DNA of 64,000 bases, taken from Somniosus microcephalus. Lineage: Eukaryota. Shown here piece by piece: positions 9,799 through 21,478 of this stretch. The position numbers were made by a program, and so were the translations under genes. Under the pieces are notes generated by a model that did no database searches, was not told where the DNA came from, and saw nothing but the letters and a program-made list of their open reading frames with translations. How positions within the stretch are numbered: position 1 is the first letter of the stretch; the number at the start of each line of letters is the position of its first letter. The stretch is from the NCBI GenBank assembly GCA_052327205.1, contig CM126213.1:120156001-120220000 (forward strand). Direction: 5' to 3'.

Positions 9799-9921
9799 GT
9801 TGATGTGAGGTAGATGTGCTCTACGAGGCTAAGGCTTACTCTGGGCTCCTCCTGCTCCGCTCTTCACAGCTAGCCGTATTGCTATCTTTTCACTGATATC
9901 TTTTCACTGATATCTTTTCAC

Positions 9922-10611
9922 TGTACTGGCCGCGCTAGACGTGCTCCTATCTAGCTATCCAGCAAGTTAAACACTCATTCATAATAATTCTTCGTGAAGC
10001 AGTTGCTGTTTGAAGCTTTTACTTGAACGAATTTGTGAAACTGTAAACAAAGACAAAGTATGTTTTGTACATAAACTGAGTACTACACATTCAATATTAC
10101 ACAAGATATAAACATATTTACAACAGTAGAATAGACTAATTGTATTACTAACTAACATTTGTAACTAACTTCTGTAACTATTAAATATTAACCTTTTATA
10201 AACATAGTATTATCAAAATATTACTCTGACAACATTGCTATTATGCTAAGAACTAAAGATACTCACAGATATTGCGTTTGGCCTAACATATGAAGTCAGA
10301 TTACACTGGATTGAAAATCCCTCATGGAATTCTCCATTACTCAAGTCAGGTTCTTCCTGGTAAAACTGCTTCCTGGGGTCAACAGGAAGAAAGGTAGGAA
10401 GGTCAAATGACCTCTCACAGGAAGAAAGGAACAAAGGTCAAATGACCTCACACAGGAAGAAAGGAACAAAGGTCAAATGACCTCACACAGGAAGAAAGGT
10501 CAGATGACCTTTCCAGCATACAAACTGTTAACACAATAACCGCCACCAGAGGGTGCTATCTGCACACATAAAATGTTCAGAATGTCACATAATGTCCATC
10601 GGTCCAGAACA
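9922..10611 (-). repeat. 5' LTR of element 3
   Basis: Direct repeat of 5590-6279. Confidence 0.95.
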
Positions 10612-12269: not shown

Positions 12270-13233
12270 TGTAAGGGGGGCATCTTTTAACTGGTTTATG
12301 GTAATTCACCTGGCCAGCAGCCTTTTGCTGCTGCACTCTAAACCAATTTACAAACAACGGTTTCGAATCGCTACCCCTCCTTCAGTTCTGAGTGGAGGAA
12401 CTTATAATTAATGATATTAAAACGGACAAGTGGTTTGGATGAGAGAAAAATCAAGTTTTATTACCTAAATAAACTACAATCAAAAGAATAAACTATGCCA
12501 CACGAACACAGTAATTACAGTAAAACTATATAACAGGGGGTTGCAGACAGCGAAAACGAGGGATGAAATGACTACAATGTTATTTAAACAATCTTAGCAA
12601 TTCCCTTAAATCACCACCCCAAACTCCTGCTAGGTTGCCTTGTTGAGGAGTCAGAACACCCTGCTCACCTGTGGTCCAGCGAAGTAAAAAGAGAGAGATA
12701 GCTTCTCAGCAGCTATCTTTTATACCTGGTGAGGTCCTGCTGTTCTGCCCTGCAAGGGCTGTGTGCAAAATTCCCCACCCAAAGGGTCCAATACACAAGA
12801 GAAAGCTGTGATTGGCTAACTCAGAGTGGTTGGACTGGGTTAATGTGTCTTCCGAAGCTCCCTGGGCTGAAACAAAAGGGAAATACAACTGCTCTATTGT
12901 CCAGAATGGTAGGTGATTTAGGCCCATTCAGTTCTTAAACGGTTCCCATTCAAGATACAAAAGTCTCTTCTGCAGTTTAGTGTATCCACTCGATATACAA
13001 ACAAATGCTAATAGCATTTGATTGCTTTGTAAACAAAGCATTGTCCTGTGGCAACGTTTTGTCTCCATTGAACCTTACTTCCAGACACAGAAAGCGGCCT
13101 CCAAGCCCCTTTGTCTTCGGCCATGTGGTGCGACAGCCATTTTTATCCCTGGAAATTTAAAAGCACAACGCCCAGGGATTCTTTAATCAAAAAAATTAAT
13201 CTTCAGAACTGTAAATTATTGCGAATTCTTACA
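12270..13233 (-). repeat. 3' LTR of element 4
   Basis: Direct repeat of 20515-21478, about 8 substitutions by eye. Confidence 0.95.
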
Positions 13234-13538
13234 GTCCGCCCTTGAATACTTCCAGCTTGCTTGTAGTATCCTCTTGAAGAAATGAGCAATAATTTCTGAC
13301 CCCTCACAAACAACCATCCCCTGTATTTACCTAATAGCTATCTGCCACTGATCCCCGTCCCGTCTATTCCCCTTAAATCAAGAAAAAAACCATGGTACGG
13401 TAGGCATCTTACAGATACTTCAGTTTTCAATAAGGGGTCTCGCTTGTAAAATTATACAATGTAAACCAAATTTACAATCACTTTTTTTTACATCATAACT
13501 TATTACAAAATGTTGCAATCTTAGTTACACAATGTAAT

Positions 13539-13654
13539 CAAAATGATCCCAAGCACGGAGAGGGTCCTATGCCTCTGCTCAACTTGGAGTTGTCACAAAA
13601 TGGTCCCAAGCACGGAGAGGATCCTACGCCTCTGCTCAACTTGGGGCTGCAACA
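13539..13654. repeat. Two tandem ~57-bp stem-loop units in the 3' UTR of element 4
   Basis: CCAAGCACGGAGAGG..CCTCTGCTCAACTTGG occurs twice. Confidence 0.85.
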
Positions 13655-15918
13655 CAAAATACAAAAAAATCATTAAACATTTGAGACAACATGCTTAAAT
13701 AAACCCCAATCATCACGTGCCGATGATGGGTCGCGAAATTCGAGTGGGTATTGCTCCTCCCACTGGGGCAGTAAATGTACCTTCCACCCCCCTTTGATTG
13801 TCTTAAACTTTAAAACAGGCAGAATGGATTTACAGACCAGCCTGCTCCGCCAGCCCCAAGCCATTCCCTTGTCCTTTTGTGGAGGCGGGGTACCCCTCAC
13901 GTTTAAAATATACCTTAGCACAGACCGAGACCGGGGAGCATGGGGTCACAACTCCCAGTCCCTCCCCCTCCCGTCTTCCCTCGACTGGCTGCAGAAAATG
14001 ATGGGTGCCTGTGTGGCGGCTTTCCCTGGCCCCACACAAACCCGGCCACCCACTCATCCTTCCCAGCCACACTTACCCTCTTTGCCCGTGGGCCCCCGGG
14101 TGAGTTCCTCCCTTCCCCGACCGCACCCACGCGACTCTTGGGCCTCCCCCTCCCCTATACAATCTTTCCCGGGCCATCACCACCCACTCCCGGGGAATGC
14201 GTCCCTATGACCAGGCGCCCGCGCTTCCCCATCATGACTCCTCAACAGCGAGGTCTCCCGCAAGTGAACTTCGGTCAGGATGGTGCTGGGTTGGGGGCCG
14301 TGCCCCACCCAGCTGGGGCCCATCTCCTCCCCGTAGGAGGAGTAGGCAAGTTCCTCCGGACCCTGTCCGGTTTTTCCCAAAAATCGCTGCGGGGTCTCCT
14401 GGATTCGTCCAGTGGCGAGGTGATCCCCAATATTCCGTATCCGTATCGTCATTCGATGCCCAGCTCGGGCTGGGCGAACATGGCTGCTTCATTTTCCAAT
14501 CTCCTGCAAAAACTTAAAAGGACATGCAGCCAGGTCTCACTGACCTGCTGCCTTAGGTGGAGACATGGTCGGGTCCCTCGACCTCGGACCAAAAATACAA
14601 ACATTTGGCACACATGTAAACTTAAACTCTTTGCACTTAAACTTAAAACAGTTATGTCAACAAAACTTAAAATACACCTTAAAAACATGCTATTTTCACA
14701 CCAAAGCTATAATACAAATGCCGCCCGTCTCCGGACGGCCAGGCTTATCTCTGGCACTGTCGCAGATTGCTGCTGGCTGCAGCGAAGCTGGACTGCCTCC
14801 TGTCTCTGGTCCCCCGCAGCTTATGGCTGTTGAGTGGGGACCCCTGTTCTTTGGCTTCTCTCTGGTTCGGGAGACCGCCTTACTCCCCTGTAAAGTGGGT
14901 GACCATGCTTTCTTAGGCTGGGGCACCCGCTGAGACCTGAGGGGTGTCTCTATGGGGGAAACTTTGGCTGGCAGACCCTGAGCTGGGGTCACAGCCCCAG
15001 CTGGCTGGGAACCTTCTCCCCCATGTCCAAATAGCCCGCACTGTATAATGTACCTGGCAGCCTGCCGGTGCAAATCTCTCTCTGGGTTTGTCTGCTCTTC
15101 CCTGCCCACTCCTGTGCTGGGAGCAGGTATACTCTCACCACCCGCTGCTGGTGGCTGGAAATTTTCCTCCCCATGTTTAAAACCTGGTGTCAGCTCCCTC
15201 CCTATGTCTCCTGCAAGAGGGATTGCTATCCCTGCCCCCCCAGGGTCCCACATCATGGGGGGGACCACTCTAGAAGCGGGCTGGGAAGCTGGTCCCTTTA
15301 AACAGGCCACAGTGCCTGTCTTTACAGGCGGTGAACTTGAACTTGCATGGACAGCAAACTCATGTTCCCTCACCCAGGTGGCTTTAACTGGGGAATTTTG
15401 GACCTGCCTTTCGTCTGGGGCCAAAACTATCCCGTGTGCCTCCCTTGTCCCGGATTTCTGCTACTGGACCTGCTCTACAGGGGTCCCAGAACTCTCCTTC
15501 CCTGTTCCCTGGCTTAAACAGCTTACTCTGAACATGAATGGCTCCTCCCCCCACACAAGCCACAGAGCTTGCCTGTGAACTTGTGCCTGCTGTGGGCTGA
15601 GGATTCCTATTCTCAGGTTCACTCCTCACGGGCGGACCGTACCTCCGTTGTTGGAGGGGGTACACTGGTCCTGGTCCCCGCCTGCCTAGCGGGACCTGCT
15701 GGTGTTCTCCTACCACCCCATTGTCCACCCCTCCTCGCTGCCAGAGCTCCTCAAGACTCGGAGCTGTGGGCTGCGGTCTTAGTGTCTCTAATTCCCTATC
15801 CAGCACCGTTCTGGGTGCTGCCTGTGGGATGGTTCTACTTCGGCTGCCAGTAAAGTCCAGCTGAACTGCCTTTGGGCTGATCAGACAAATCATCCCCTTT
15901 GATGCCTTTAAAGCCATG

Positions 15919-16684
15919 TGTTCTGCCCTCGCAACGCGCTTCTATGCAGAGCTAGACAGATAGCGAACAACTCGATATCTTCCAATAAAATCACAAGGCT
16001 TGACTTTTCTTGTAACGCTTTACTGAACGATTCTAATTGGAAGATATCGAGTTGTTCGCTATCTGTCTAGCTCTGCATAGAAGCGCGTTGCGAGGGCAGA
16101 ACAGTAAAAAGACAAACAATTTCCAAGACTCAAGCATGGGGACAATACAACTGCCCAGAGCCTGCGCTGCTGTAGGAGCACCGTGGTGTAGGTCTGTGTC
16201 CCAGCGAGGGCTCCACGAGGACTACGTAGCAGTCCTGTGGGGAGCGTGATGACCTCATCACGCTCGGTAGCGTTGTCCGCGCTTGGGGCGTCACGTGATG
16301 CGCGTGGTCGCGTTTCTGGCCGTGGAGGCCGAAGTCGGGAGCGGGAGCTGGAGGCCAGGCTGAGCCGATGCTTGCCGCGGGAGCGGAAGATCGCGTCGCT
16401 CCCGGCGGCTGGTAGATGCGGCCAAAGACGCTAGGCCGGGCTGTGCCGGCAGCCTTTCTGGAAGGCCGAGTCGGGCCGGCAGCCGCCTCACGCACGTCAC
16501 ACGTGCCGTGACGTCAGCACGCTACGTTGTACGTGACGCGACGTCAGCACGCTAAGGCGCGTCTTAAAGGGGCAATGGCCCTAAAAGGTAAGTTAAAGGG
16601 GCAACGGCCCCAACAGGTAGGTTATACATATATAAGTAAGTTAAATACATACAGTGAGGTTAAGTTAGAGGGAGAGGCAGCACA
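15919..16684 (-). repeat. 3' LTR of element 5, containing a 68-bp perfect inverted repeat (15919-15986 / 16036-16103)
   Basis: Direct repeat of 19078-19843; arms read as exact reverse complements. Confidence 0.95.
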
Positions 16685-16778
16685 CTCCCCGCTTGGTACA
16701 ATTCCATTGTACCACTACAGATACAAAATAAACCTGAAGAAAACGTCCTTTGGCTGCAACATACTCAGAGTTCGTTCT

Positions 16779-19022
16779 CTAGGTTACTTCAGAAAGGAGG
16801 ATCTCTGAGACTGGCCTCAGAAACACGTTGATAGGCCCCTCCTTGACAATCTTCACCTCCACCTTGCGGACCCTCTTGTCCCTGGTCGGCAGAGTTTTGA
16901 CAACCAGGCCCACTGGCCATTCATTTCTGCGTGCTTGGCTGTCTTTCAGCAAGACAACGTCTCTCACTTTGACGTTTGGCTTGTCTTCTGTCCATTTCCT
17001 ACGGCTCTGTAGGGTGGACAAATACTCTCCTCTTTGCTTGGGGAATGTCTGTCCCTCTTCAAGACATTTGAATTCCTCCTTGAAGACATCATGCTGGACA
17101 GAGCGAATGATCACACCTTTGGCTTGTGATGGCTCACTTGTGCTGGATACTTCTTTAGAACATTTCCATCCTTTGCGTTCTATGTTGTCCGAATTCCCCT
17201 TGAAGGATGCTGCTACATGAATGAGTCGGGCTGTGGTTCGGCAGAGTGTTCTCCAGCTTGAGAATCGCTCGAAGCTTTGTGAGCCCAACTGAGATTCTGA
17301 GGCTTTGGTGACCAGGGTCGTAACTTCAGGCCGAATCTCGGTATCAGCTTCAGGCTCCACAAGGGTGAAGGGATTGGACTCAGGAGTCTCCTCTGTGTTG
17401 ACATTAGACAGGAAAGAGGGGCCCGAGAACCAACTGCTTTGCTGTAGGTGTGCTGCTGGTATAGACCTGGTAGCATGGTCTGCAGGGTTCAGGTCCGTGG
17501 GGACATAGCACCACTGGTCAGGGTGAGTGGATCGTCTGATACGAGTCACCCAGTTGGAAACATACACGTAAAACCTTCTTGTGGAGTTGTGGATGTAACC
17601 AAGTACAATCTTGCTGTCCGTGAAGAACTTGACGGCGCCCACATCGATGTCAATCTTGTCTCTGATCAACTGTAGGTTCCATTTTGCTTCTTTTTCAGGG
17701 AGGAGTGGAGCATCCCACTCACTCTGATCCGATGAGAGTTCCCGTACAAATGCTTTTCCTTGCATTGTTATGGGAGCTACGAACCCCAAAGGGTCGTACA
17801 AACTGTTGACTGTGGACAGGATGTCTCTCCGTGTGAATGGCCTTTCTTCACGGGACACCAGGAATGTGACGCTGTCTGTTTCCAGGTTCCAGGAGAGCCC
17901 CAGGCTCCGTTGAAGGGGGGGAGGATCCACTCCAAGGTGCAAATCCTTCAGATCCTTGGCACGGTCCTCTGCAGGGAAGGCTTCCATCACCTGTCCACTG
18001 TTCGATGCTACCTTGTGTAGTCTCAGGTTGGGCTCTTTCCATGACCAACAACTTTCAGGACGGCCATCTAACTCCAGAAGGCCCGAACTCAACAACTCTC
18101 GGCGGATAAGGCACCCAGCGAGGTCCTGTGTACCCTGTGGCTCGGGTGAGGACTGCTTGGCTGGATTGGCCGAGTGCTGTGGAGGTCTCTGTAGGTAAGT
18201 CTTGCTTGTTTCTTCTCCTTTAAGCTCAGTGTCTCCAAAAACAGGCTGTTTGCTACTGTGTTGAGTAGCTGGTTCTGCGTTGAGATAGTTGGATGTTTCC
18301 TTGGAGAACAATTTGGAGTGTTGTTGGACACACTCACTTGTACGTTGCACTGGACTGAGGGGCTGTCCCAGAACATATGTTTCCTGGCTGGGCTCCCCGC
18401 CTTCGTTCTCCTCACCTTCTTCATAAGCTGCGGCTTTAGCTTTAGCGGCAGCGGCAGCTCTCTGGCTTTGGAGAATGTGGAGACTGGCAGCGAGGTCAGC
18501 TCTCTGCTTCATAACCCTAGCTTCTTTTTCAGCAAGGGCCAATTGAGCCTGGGCAGCTTTTGCCTTGGCACGTGCTTTGGCGGCTGCAGAAGCTGTCGAT
18601 GACGACGGTCTGCTGGACTGCCGAGATGATCTAGTGGATACTTTAGAGGACTGTGCTGTCTGCTTCATCACACTAGCGTCGAGGTCAGCTCTCTGCTTCA
18701 TCACACTAGCGTCGAGGTCGGCTCTCTGCTTCATAAGGTCAGCTTTCTGCTTCATCATACTAGCTTCGAGGTCGGCTCTCTGCTTCATAAGGTCAGCTTC
18801 TTTTTCAGCGAAGGACAATTGAGCCTGGGCAGCTTTTGCCTTGGCACGTGCTTTGGCGGCTGCAGAAGCTGTCGATGACGACGGTCTGCTGGACCGCCGA
18901 GATGACCTAGGGGATACTTTAGAGGGCTGTGACTTGGCATCGTTTGCTAGGAGAGGCTCATGCTTCTCGCTTGACTGGTCGACGTCCTCTAGGGTATATT
19001 GTTTTCCTGAGCGTAGACTCAT
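16779..19022 (-). CDS. 747-aa fused BEL gag / RT C-terminus / RNase H part / integrase C-terminus ORF, lacking catalytic cores
   Basis: ATG start; AAAKARAKAKAA gag repeats; NLRLHKVASN, SLYDPLGF, FTDSKIVLGYI, NPADHATR, EYLSTLQSRRKW, RNEWPVG; no YVDD, protease or integrase core. Confidence 0.8.
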   Translation of the reverse strand: MSLRSGKQYTLEDVDQSSEKHEPLLANDAKSQPSKVSPRSSRRSSRPSSSTASAAAKARAKAKAAQAQLSFAEKEADLMKQRADLEASMMKQKADLMKQRADLDASVMKQRADLDASVMKQTAQSSKVSTRSSRQSSRPSSSTASAAAKARAKAKAAQAQLALAEKEARVMKQRADLAASLHILQSQRAAAAAKAKAAAYEEGEENEGGEPSQETYVLGQPLSPVQRTSECVQQHSKLFSKETSNYLNAEPATQHSSKQPVFGDTELKGEETSKTYLQRPPQHSANPAKQSSPEPQGTQDLAGCLIRRELLSSGLLELDGRPESCWSWKEPNLRLHKVASNSGQVMEAFPAEDRAKDLKDLHLGVDPPPLQRSLGLSWNLETDSVTFLVSREERPFTRRDILSTVNSLYDPLGFVAPITMQGKAFVRELSSDQSEWDAPLLPEKEAKWNLQLIRDKIDIDVGAVKFFTDSKIVLGYIHNSTRRFYVYVSNWVTRIRRSTHPDQWCYVPTDLNPADHATRSIPAAHLQQSSWFSGPSFLSNVNTEETPESNPFTLVEPEADTEIRPEVTTLVTKASESQLGSQSFERFSSWRTLCRTTARLIHVAASFKGNSDNIERKGWKCSKEVSSTSEPSQAKGVIIRSVQHDVFKEEFKCLEEGQTFPKQRGEYLSTLQSRRKWTEDKPNVKVRDVVLLKDSQARRNEWPVGLVVKTLPTRDKRVRKVEVKIVKEGPINVFLRPVSEILLSEVT

Positions 19023-19077
19023 GGTAGCTGAGTGGTATCTTCCTGCGCTTGAGCCCGCTGTGCTGTTGTCTTTTTAC

Positions 19078-19843
19078 TGTTCTGCCCTCGCAACGTGCTT
19101 CTATGCAGAGCTAGACAGATAGCGAACAACTCGATATCTTCCAATAAAATCACAAGGCTTGACTTTTCTTGTAACGCTTTACTGAACGATTCTAATTGGA
19201 AGATATCGAGTTGTTCGCTATCTGTCTAGCTCTGCATAGAAGCGCGTTGCGAGGGCAGAACAGTAAAAAGACAAACAATTTCCAAGACTCAAGCATGGGG
19301 ACAATACAACTGCCCAGAGCCTGCGCTGCTGTAGGAGCACCGTGGTGTAGGTCTGTGTCCCAGCGAGGGCTCCACGAGGACTACGTAGCAGTCCTGTGGG
19401 GAGCGTGATGACCTCATCACGCTCGGTAGCGTTGTCCGCGCTTGGGGCGTCACGTGATGCGCGTGGTCGCGTTTCTGGCCGTGGAGGCCGAAGTCGGGAG
19501 CGGGAGCTGGAGGCCAGGCTGAGCCGATGCTTGCCGCGGGAGCGGAAGATCGCGTCGCTCCCGGCGGCTGGTAGATGCGGCCAAAGACGCTAGGCCGGGC
19601 TGTGCCGGCAGCCTTTCTGGAAGGCCGAGTCGGGCCGGCAGCCGCCTCACGCACGTCACACGTGCCGTGACGTCAGCACGCTACGTTGTACGTGACGCGA
19701 CGTCAGCACGCTAAGGCGCGTCTTAAAGGGGCAATGGCCCTAAAAGGTAAGTTAAAGGGGCAACGGCCCCAACAGGTAGGTTATACATATATAAGTAAGT
19801 TAAATACATACAGTGAGGTTAAGTTAGAGGGAGAGGCAGCACA
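19078..19843 (-). repeat. 5' LTR of element 5
   Basis: Direct repeat of 15919-16684. Confidence 0.95.
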
Positions 19844-20514
19844 CCATGTTAAGGCTTTCTATCTCTGCCCTACAGGGGCCACGATCTGCTTCCTCAAACC
19901 TTAGGCCGCAGGCCAGCTTATAAGCTGCCTTTACTTCCCTAAACTTCTCCTCCTGCTCTGTCCCTTCTGAGGTGAGGCGGGCATTCTCTTCCCATAGTCT
20001 CATCTCGCTCCTCTTTACTCCTATAATTTGGTACTTTAGGAATTCTATCTCGTTCCTTGCATGGCTTTTTCCCTCGCTAGCTTCTTGGGTGAGGTGTGCG
20101 ATTTCCTCCCGTAGCCTCATCTCACAGTCCCTTGCCTCTGTGACTTCCTGCACAAGGCGCTCTATAAATGCCTGGCATTTTGTGACCTCTAGTGTGAGGC
20201 ATGCATTCTCTTCCCGCACCCTCATTCCACTAGCTCTGGCCTCATACACCTCTCTGAGGCGTTCTACCTCCGCCTGGCATTTTTCAAGCTGGGACTCCCG
20301 ATTCTTGGCATCTTTAACCTCCTCCTGCACCCTCTTCTCACCCTCCTTAACCCAGCCACCTATACCATGATAGGCCAGCCTACACGCTGCTGCTAACATC
20401 CGCAGGGCTACCCACATACTGAAAACAACGAGAGAAACTATAGCTGATGCTTTCTTCAGATCCAGACCACTTATTAAATCAAAAAATGCCTCCACTCCTA
20501 CCTGGCTTGCCATT

Positions 20515-21478
20515 TGTAAGGGGGGCATCTTTTAACTGGTTTATGGTAATTCACCTGGCCAGCAGCCTTTTGCTGCTGCACTCTAAACCAATTTACAAAC
20601 AGCGGTTTCGAATCGCTACCCCTCCTTCAGTTCTGAGTGGAGGAACTTATAATTAATGATATTAAAACGGACAAGTGGTTTGGATGAGAGAAAAATCAAG
20701 TTTTATTACCTAAATAAACTACAATCAAAAGAATAAACTATGCCACACGAACACAGTAATTACAGTAAAACTATATAACAGGGGGTTGCAGATGGCGAAA
20801 ACGAGGGATGAAATGACTACAATGTTATTTAAACAATCTTAGCAATTCCCTTAAATCACCACCCCAAACTCCTGCTAGGTTGCGTTGTTGAGGAGTCAGA
20901 ACACCCTGCTCACCTGTGGTCCAGCGAAGTAAAAAGAGAGAGATAGCTTCTCAGCAGCTATCTTTTATACCTGGTGAGGTCCTGCCGTTCTGCCCTGCAA
21001 GGGCTGTGTGCAAAATTCCCCACCCAAAGGGTCCAATACACAAGAGAAAGCTGTGATTGGCTAACTCAGAGTGGTTGGACTGGGTTAATGTGTCTTCCGA
21101 AGCTCCCTGGGCTGAAACAAAAGGGAAATACAACTGCTCTATTGTCCAGAATGCTAGGTGATTTAGGCCCATTCAGTTCTTAAACGGTTCCCATTCAAGA
21201 TACAAAAGTCTCTTCTGCAGTTTAGTGTATCCACTCGATATACAAACAAATGCTAATAGCATTCGATTGCTTTGTAAACAAAGCATTGTCCTGTGGCAAC
21301 GTTTTGTCTCCATTGAACCTTACTTCCAGACACAGAAAGCGGCCTCCAAGCCCCTTTGTCTTCGGCCATGTGGTGCGACAGCCATTTTTATCCCTGGAAA
21401 TTTAAAAGCACAACGCCCAGGGATTCTTTAATCAAAAAAATTAATCTTCAGAACTGTAAATTATTGTGAATTCTTACA
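20515..21478 (-). repeat. 5' LTR of element 4
   Basis: Direct repeat of 12270-13233, adjacent PBS. Confidence 0.95.

Follow-up and report, generated by a model that had tools for sequence, protein, structure and literature searches.

What primes reverse transcription in a retrotransposon whose LTR folds back over its own primer site, and why should that LTR carry so long a hairpin? Both questions are raised by an element on the minus strand of the window (the whole 64,000-nt stretch of DNA analyzed here), which the initial annotation had put forward as a candidate self-priming or hairpin-controlled BEL retrotransposon. Its features in the window are as follows.

15914–15918, plus strand: TSD CCATG, with its second copy at 19844–19848
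15919–16684, minus strand: 3' LTR with the same hairpin (arms 15919–15986 and 16036–16103; junction sequence 16104–16115)
16685–16694, minus strand: polypurine tract AAGCGGGGAG, adjoining the 3' LTR
16779–19022, minus strand: internally deleted gag-pol ORF (ATG at 19022; Peptidase_A17 fragment, DUF5641)
19066–19077, minus strand: non-tRNA primer-binding site GTAAAAAGACAA, adjoining the LTR directly
19078–19843, minus strand: 5' LTR, BEL/Pao, intron-less hairpin form (766 bp, TG...CA)
19078–19145, minus strand: U5 end of the 5' LTR, with one CpG-type mismatch to the inner arm
19146–19194, minus strand: hairpin loop, corresponding to the normal R region, with the poly(A)-like AGTAAA at 19178–19183
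19195–19262, minus strand: insert of 68 bp that copies the element's own U5 in inverted orientation from the base next to the predicted primer end; likely captured minus strong-stop DNA
19263, minus strand: predicted 3' end of the primer, the last base of the anti-PBS
19263–19274, minus strand: anti-PBS TTGTCT/TTTTAC, an exon-exon junction with its joint between 19269 and 19268

Both LTRs contain the 68-bp inverted repeat with a 49-nt loop that the initial annotation had described. The arms of the 3' LTR (68 nt, 15919–15986 and 16036–16103) are 100% complementary, and those of the 5' LTR carry one mismatch and extend to 80 nt at 99% complementarity (19066–19145 and 19195–19274, again with 49 nt between them), forming the proposed ~80-bp duplex over the U5 end and the primer-site position; the hairpin measures 68 bp per LTR and 80 bp once the primer site is included. 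Folding, one of the checks proposed at the outset, placed it far below shuffled sequences (-176.3 kcal/mol versus -67.1 ± 4.9 for 200 shuffles; z = -22; 0/200 as good). The AGTAAA reported in the loop is present, and the claim that the element transposed with its hairpin agrees with the presence of the hairpin in both LTRs (15919–16684 and 19078–19843), which are 99.87% identical, and with the TSD CCATG. On the element (minus) strand GTAAAAAGACAACA directly follows the 5' LTR and TTGTCTTTTTAC directly precedes the inner arm, and that arm is preceded by a 12-nt complement of the primer site GTAAAAAGACAA, which is non-TGG, as had been noted. An 11-nt primer had been proposed at the LTR end: the complement does end exactly at the minus-strand start, but its length is 12 nt.

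By protein and architecture the element is BEL/Pao, a variant that departs from the group in its primer-site trait. Its ORF matches Peptidase_A17 and DUF5641 (Pfam), and it has direct LTRs, 766 bp long in the window copy and ~960 bp where the intron is present, and the polypurine tract AAGCGGGGAG. An internal deletion has taken large parts of pol compared with a long relative, L069, in which the domains run DUF1759 (weak), RVT_1 (weak), Peptidase_A17, integrase H2C2 plus rve (weak) and DUF5641; no protease was detected by Pfam in the BEL polyprotein. These traits resemble those of Belpaoviridae (Semotivirus), which share LTRs of 0.2–1.2 kb, a ~10-nt polypurine tract, the order Gag–RT–RNase H region–integrase, and Peptidase_A17 with DUF5641. 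The ICTV gives typical belpaovirids an 18-nt PBS complementary to the 3' end of tRNA-Arg or tRNA-Gly and calls their replication poorly understood (PMC8742986). BEL/Pao priming is taken as tRNA-based; the hairpin family differs in that it does not show this 18-nt site. The window copy is itself nested in another minus-strand LTR element (12270–21478) with 966-bp LTRs (99.2% identical), a 4-bp TSD GTTG and an ordinary TGG-type primer site 2 bases past the LTR, whose scanned internal ORFs gave no Pfam match.

The sister copies revealed what the initial annotation had missed, namely that the complement of the primer site is absent from the DNA of normal copies, where an intron interrupts it and splicing alone creates it. 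A DNA search of the 6.4-Gb source genome returned 38 other LTR matches among 40 scored places, and the alignment was broken at the arm in all of them. Inspection covered 25 of the 28 other loci: 23 contain a 254-nt sequence, GTAAGT...TTTCAG, between TTGTCT and TTTTAC, and 2 precisely lack it. Once the intron is removed, TTGTCT adjoins TTTTAC, and the joined sequence is complementary to the whole 12-nt stretch that follows the LTR, GTAAAAAGACAA. Exact junction patterns in the source genome matched at least 633 LTRs with the intron donor junction, at least 15 with the clean spliced junction and at least 7 with the junction followed by T, all lower bounds because exact matching misses copies with mismatches. 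Six of these last 7 matches are hairpin LTRs, from three insertions (C7, the window and C21), and the seventh is a locus we call L114. The proposed collection of genomic copies thus extends the hairpin beyond one copy, to 3 elements and 6 LTRs, but does not make it a family feature, as it is found in 6/654 LTRs matching the three patterns (<1%). At two places in the source genome (C12:219657300–219665200, L076, and C42:1983639–2011557) we observed tandem arrays of the deleted element with LTRs in common, with periods of ~3.1 and 3.35 kb.

A second BEL/Pao family in the window provides its own case of a split complement.

9922–10611, minus strand: 5' LTR of the second family (66% RT identity to the first; junction ATATCT/TTTCAC)
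10041–10266, minus strand: its intact intron, 226 nt
9910–9921, minus strand: its primer site GTGAAAAGATAT, complementary to its own junction and the first of three tandem units

We compared junction and primer site in eight LTRs: those of the hairpin family and of this second family, five on metagenome contigs (L167 and L168, 86–87% identity; L171, L173 and L184, 49–54%), and that of a third family of the source genome. The metagenome contigs are collapsed repeat assemblies, and the five were those among 27 metagenome loci with a whole LTR adjoining the primer site, the 22 incomplete loci being left out. All seven LTRs with a GT[A/G]AAAA-type site contain a canonical GT-AG intron of 105–254 nt, and after its removal have 12, 12, 12, 12, 14, 14 and 13 nt of complement to the site versus 6–7 nt unspliced, each exon giving 6–7 bases. 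A PBS complement within the element's own LTR RNA, the trait of the Tf1/sushi group, is therefore present in 7/7 at 12–14 nt after splicing, and in 7/7 the helix ends exactly at the first base past the LTR. This set reaches down to ~50% RT identity and includes five distinct primer-site sequences, and its donors are all GT(A/G)(A/G)GT and its acceptors all YAG after a pyrimidine-rich tract, despite differing intron sequences. When each LTR was set against the foreign ones among these five sites, the longest complement was 8 nt, showing that the complement is family-specific and that it co-varies with the primer site across families, as the initial annotation had suggested checking. Shuffled primer sites never reached the observed length (0/300 in each case), and none of the eight primer sites examined begins with TGG; that of the hairpin family begins GTAAAAAG.

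Further features accompany the junction. A second short helix lies beside the duplex in the hairpin family, L167 and L168, and a poly(A)-like signal occurs 15–40 nt downstream of the junction (AATAAA in L171, L173 and L184, AGTAAA in the window). The predicted fold of a natural intron-less LTR gives the helix between anti-PBS and PBS a probability of ~1.0 for 10/12 pairs. Distant relatives (L169, L170, L171, L173, L176, L177 and L184) also share a conserved donor-like AG/GTAAGCCG 30–45 nt past the primer site, which may belong to a second intron or may bind U1 and so suppress the 5' poly(A) signal. In the second family (9882–9921, minus strand, and loci L083–L111) the primer site occurs as 1–4 tandem units of GTGAAAAGATA(T/G)-CA; the added units end in T, the 12th base of the junction, and the last unit has G, as if the added units had been copied from the primer during plus-strand transfer.

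The third family (L147–L166; LTR ~431 bp, 44–45% RT identity) has no such intron. It carries, inside the LTR, an unsplit 10-nt complement of a non-tRNA site 3 nt off the LTR end (a TTA spacer, then GTCAAAAACT), which indicates that the intron is not required by all BEL elements with a self-complement and makes this family a candidate intron-free self-primer. Its complement gains 5–6 more pairs past a 4-nt bulge and is preceded by an acceptor-like AG. A search with DUF1759 gave 150 matches, and ~17 of the 20 examined had clear LTR pairs, all of one further family; a search of viral contigs gave 0 loci. A genome-wide pattern for additional families was rejected, as its 7941 matches (12446 for the control) were swamped by another abundant repeat.

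Splicing of the LTR was detected in RNA of a relative. Reads from runs X6 and X7 (a related organism, one study; 24% and 31% of reads) were mapped to an intron-bearing 5' LTR, and both runs contained a joint from 2082 to 2337, a 254-nt GT..AG skip found on one strand only, supported by 8 reads from 1 start in X6 and 14 reads from 8 starts in X7. Sense depth in X7 was 15–29 within the intron versus 71–187 over the following 380 nt; this dip is not due to mapping, because the opposite strand covers the intron at 114–179. The 254-nt skip was not found in the DNA contig sets X2 and X4, in which rare variants are dropped by assembly, and intron-less DNA copies could be the source of some junction reads. 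The second family gave a weak signal in this RNA: 2 X7 reads fit its predicted junction, no joint rose above the listing threshold, and the intron showed no dip.

The genome also retains integrated copies that probably record the spliced RNA. The 15 intron-less LTRs are distributed unevenly: the intron is missing from the 5' LTR only in 8 distinct insertions, from all LTRs in 2, and from the 3' LTR only in 0 (two-sided p = 0.008). Two of the 8 exist as segmental duplicates and were counted once, with the 3' LTR of one duplicate left out. The LTR pairs of seven 5'-spliced elements differ from each other (L071 unscored, L078 dropped as a duplicate), and 19/36 of their first-exon differences fall at positions 400–580 (p = 0.006); six intron/intron control pairs have 0–1 differing sites, though these were best query matches and are biased young. 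The differences are consistent with a minus strand that continued onto a second RNA at its spliced 5' end.

All three hairpin insertions have a 5-bp TSD, and in each of them the arm starts with the base that follows TTTTAC and stops at a common (C)AAT. Among the five LTRs with both arms intact, the arm has 0–1 differences from its own U5 and 2–4 from the U5 of other elements; since each arm matches its own U5 variant, the hairpins point to separate events in different subfamilies. L061, the 3' LTR of the C7 hairpin element, has one CpG-type change shared by arm and U5 in complementary form and absent from the 5' arm, which suggests repair or conversion inside the hairpin after insertion. The remaining fossil, L114, has two identical 913-bp intron-bearing LTRs (TSD GTTAT). 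Past its 5' LTR stands an inverted copy, 525 nt long, of the complete spliced first exon; this block runs from the junction hexamer at the primer end to LTR base 1 and meets the inner region across 6 matching nt. Spliced sequence next to unspliced LTRs calls for an RNA template, and a plus strand that continued into a spliced primer still attached to it would yield just such a block. In all four fossil insertions the joint falls at one and the same base. We considered the block's single difference as a marker of the transcription start and rejected it, as it falls at a CpG site that is polymorphic among copies.

We favor, at a probability of roughly 0.7, a reading in cis in which the family self-primes reverse transcription through its own spliced RNA and the hairpin is a frozen accident of that priming. 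The cap-proximal intron of the 5' LTR would be spliced, with that of the 3' LTR mostly retained, and within the particle the junction would pair with the primer site, assisted by the adjacent second short helix. A cut after ...UUUUAC, probably by the element's RNase H by analogy with Tf1, would release the predicted primer, a spliced LTR RNA ending ...UCUUUUUAC. Minus strong-stop DNA (~120 nt) would then jump via the R region to the unspliced 3' end, so both new LTRs would regain the intron, and copying of the primer would regenerate the primer site. The strong-stop DNA of the window copy may have folded back at the short (C)AAT match, recopied its own 68 nt and run on into the still-attached spliced primer before normal completion, which would place the spliced junction and the inverted U5 in both LTRs. 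A fold-back of strong-stop DNA, one of the alternatives offered by the initial annotation, thus best explains the 68-bp arm, and the long hairpin is likely a rare by-product that marks a splicing-dependent self-priming system. The second helix, 15–25 nt upstream, and the LTR differences at 400–580 suggest a first exon longer than an 11-nt primer. The main gap is that, judged by sequence alone, a primer looks no different from a template reached by a jump via these 12 nt: given another primer of the same sequence, the fossils could have arisen by a template jump onto spliced RNA through the 12-nt match.

It seems to us unlikely that the primer acts in trans, coming from a short, spliced LTR transcript of its own or from a spliced RNA with a trimmed or cleaved 3' end. 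Such a primer would suit the L114 block, which reaches LTR base 1, and the signs of two RNA templates in the 5'-spliced elements (19/36 differences at 400–580, p = 0.006; 0–1 in controls). However, fold-back on plus strong-stop DNA would likewise reach base 1, the block's single difference from the LTRs is a CpG site, the control pairs are biased young, and the 8:0 bias means that spliced 5' ends joined to a primer site do exist. We judge it improbable that a host RNA (a tRNA fragment or other small RNA) is the primer and that the junction helix instead has a role in packaging, translation or the control of poly(A). The tRNA-Arg or tRNA-Gly priming given by the ICTV for belpaovirids (PMC8742986) argues for such a primer, but 0/8 sites start with TGG, the helix ends at the first base past the LTR in 7/7, and each of the five site sequences matches its own junction, so that several host RNAs would have to be invoked.

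The 68-bp arm itself could in principle be chromosomal in origin, if replication had switched templates across the 12-bp inverted repeat in an intron-less 5' LTR and the product had later spread to both LTRs. Quasi-palindrome switches are able to yield this geometry and intron-less 5' LTRs exist, yet we hold this origin very improbable: it needs three rare parents, none seen among the 7 pattern matches, all of which are accounted for; the primer site is absent from the 3' LTR; every one of the three insertions has the arm in its two LTRs and is flanked by a 5-bp TSD; and a chromosomal switch offers no route to the spliced block of L114 beside an intron-bearing LTR. The initial annotation had also raised the idea of a hairpin that controls poly(A) or supplies siRNA; as an evolved device spreading with the element, it is largely refuted. 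Its high stability and three carrier insertions speak for a device, but it occurs in <1% of LTRs (6/654), every carrier is a single-copy insertion whose arm copies its own, different U5 variant, and its Rfam matches are sub-threshold miRNA precursors only, as any long hairpin would give.

The cis reading resembles priming in Tf1 and Tf2 of Schizosaccharomyces pombe and in the wider Tf1/sushi group, where no tRNA is used and an LTR-internal stretch of 11–14 nt pairs right after the 5' LTR. According to a review (PMC7175516), Tf1 RNA anneals to the PBS through its first 11 bases and is cut by RNase H between bases 11 and 12; in the BEL family too a cut would be needed to free the 3' end of the primer. 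Tf1/sushi elements are, however, Ty3/gypsy (chromovirus), whereas the window element is BEL/Pao by Pao-specific Pfam domains and not a member of that group. The complement in the window's family is also absent from DNA and splice-assembled, with 6–7 nt per exon; it seems to lie well inside the RNA, beyond the first 11 bases, and its intron would return each cycle from the unspliced 3' LTR. We found no report of self-priming or of an LTR-intron primer in BEL/Pao in the largely open-access literature searched. The available parts of PMC554778 and PMC3118150 contain nothing on tRNA, priming or PBS, and those of PMC3601003 and PMC13524379 nothing bearing on BEL/Pao self-priming. This locus adds a set of integrated intermediates and an RNA joint, and the fossils fix the predicted primer end to the base.

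If true, a splice-built primer would differ as a route from both tRNA priming and Tf1-type self-priming and would link transposition to the splicing state of the host. The element would also escape silencing by tRNA fragments at the PBS, and the absence of a PBS from the annotation of such elements would be explained. A primer of this kind also shows a way for an intron to persist in a retroelement. We think it probable that this is a splice-primed BEL/Pao lineage, widespread in fishes, frogs and invertebrates, in which a spliceosome-built LTR primer replaces tRNA, the RNAs of the 5' and 3' LTRs are unequal, and genomes keep primer-linked minus- and plus-strand fossils including this hairpin.

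Relatives in the RT region, at 63–88% identity, were found in many teleosts, frogs, a sturgeon, a sea star and a tick, with no named clade reference (Suzu, Sinbad or other) coming up in the searches; the tree, which has neither an outgroup nor named references, supports no clade name and no order of events. Zebrafish and Xenopus relatives at 66–73% RT-region identity make the question approachable in model animals. Identity to bony-fish proteins reaches up to 86% in the RT region, a high figure for a transposon should its host be a distant vertebrate, and horizontal transfer is a possible cause.
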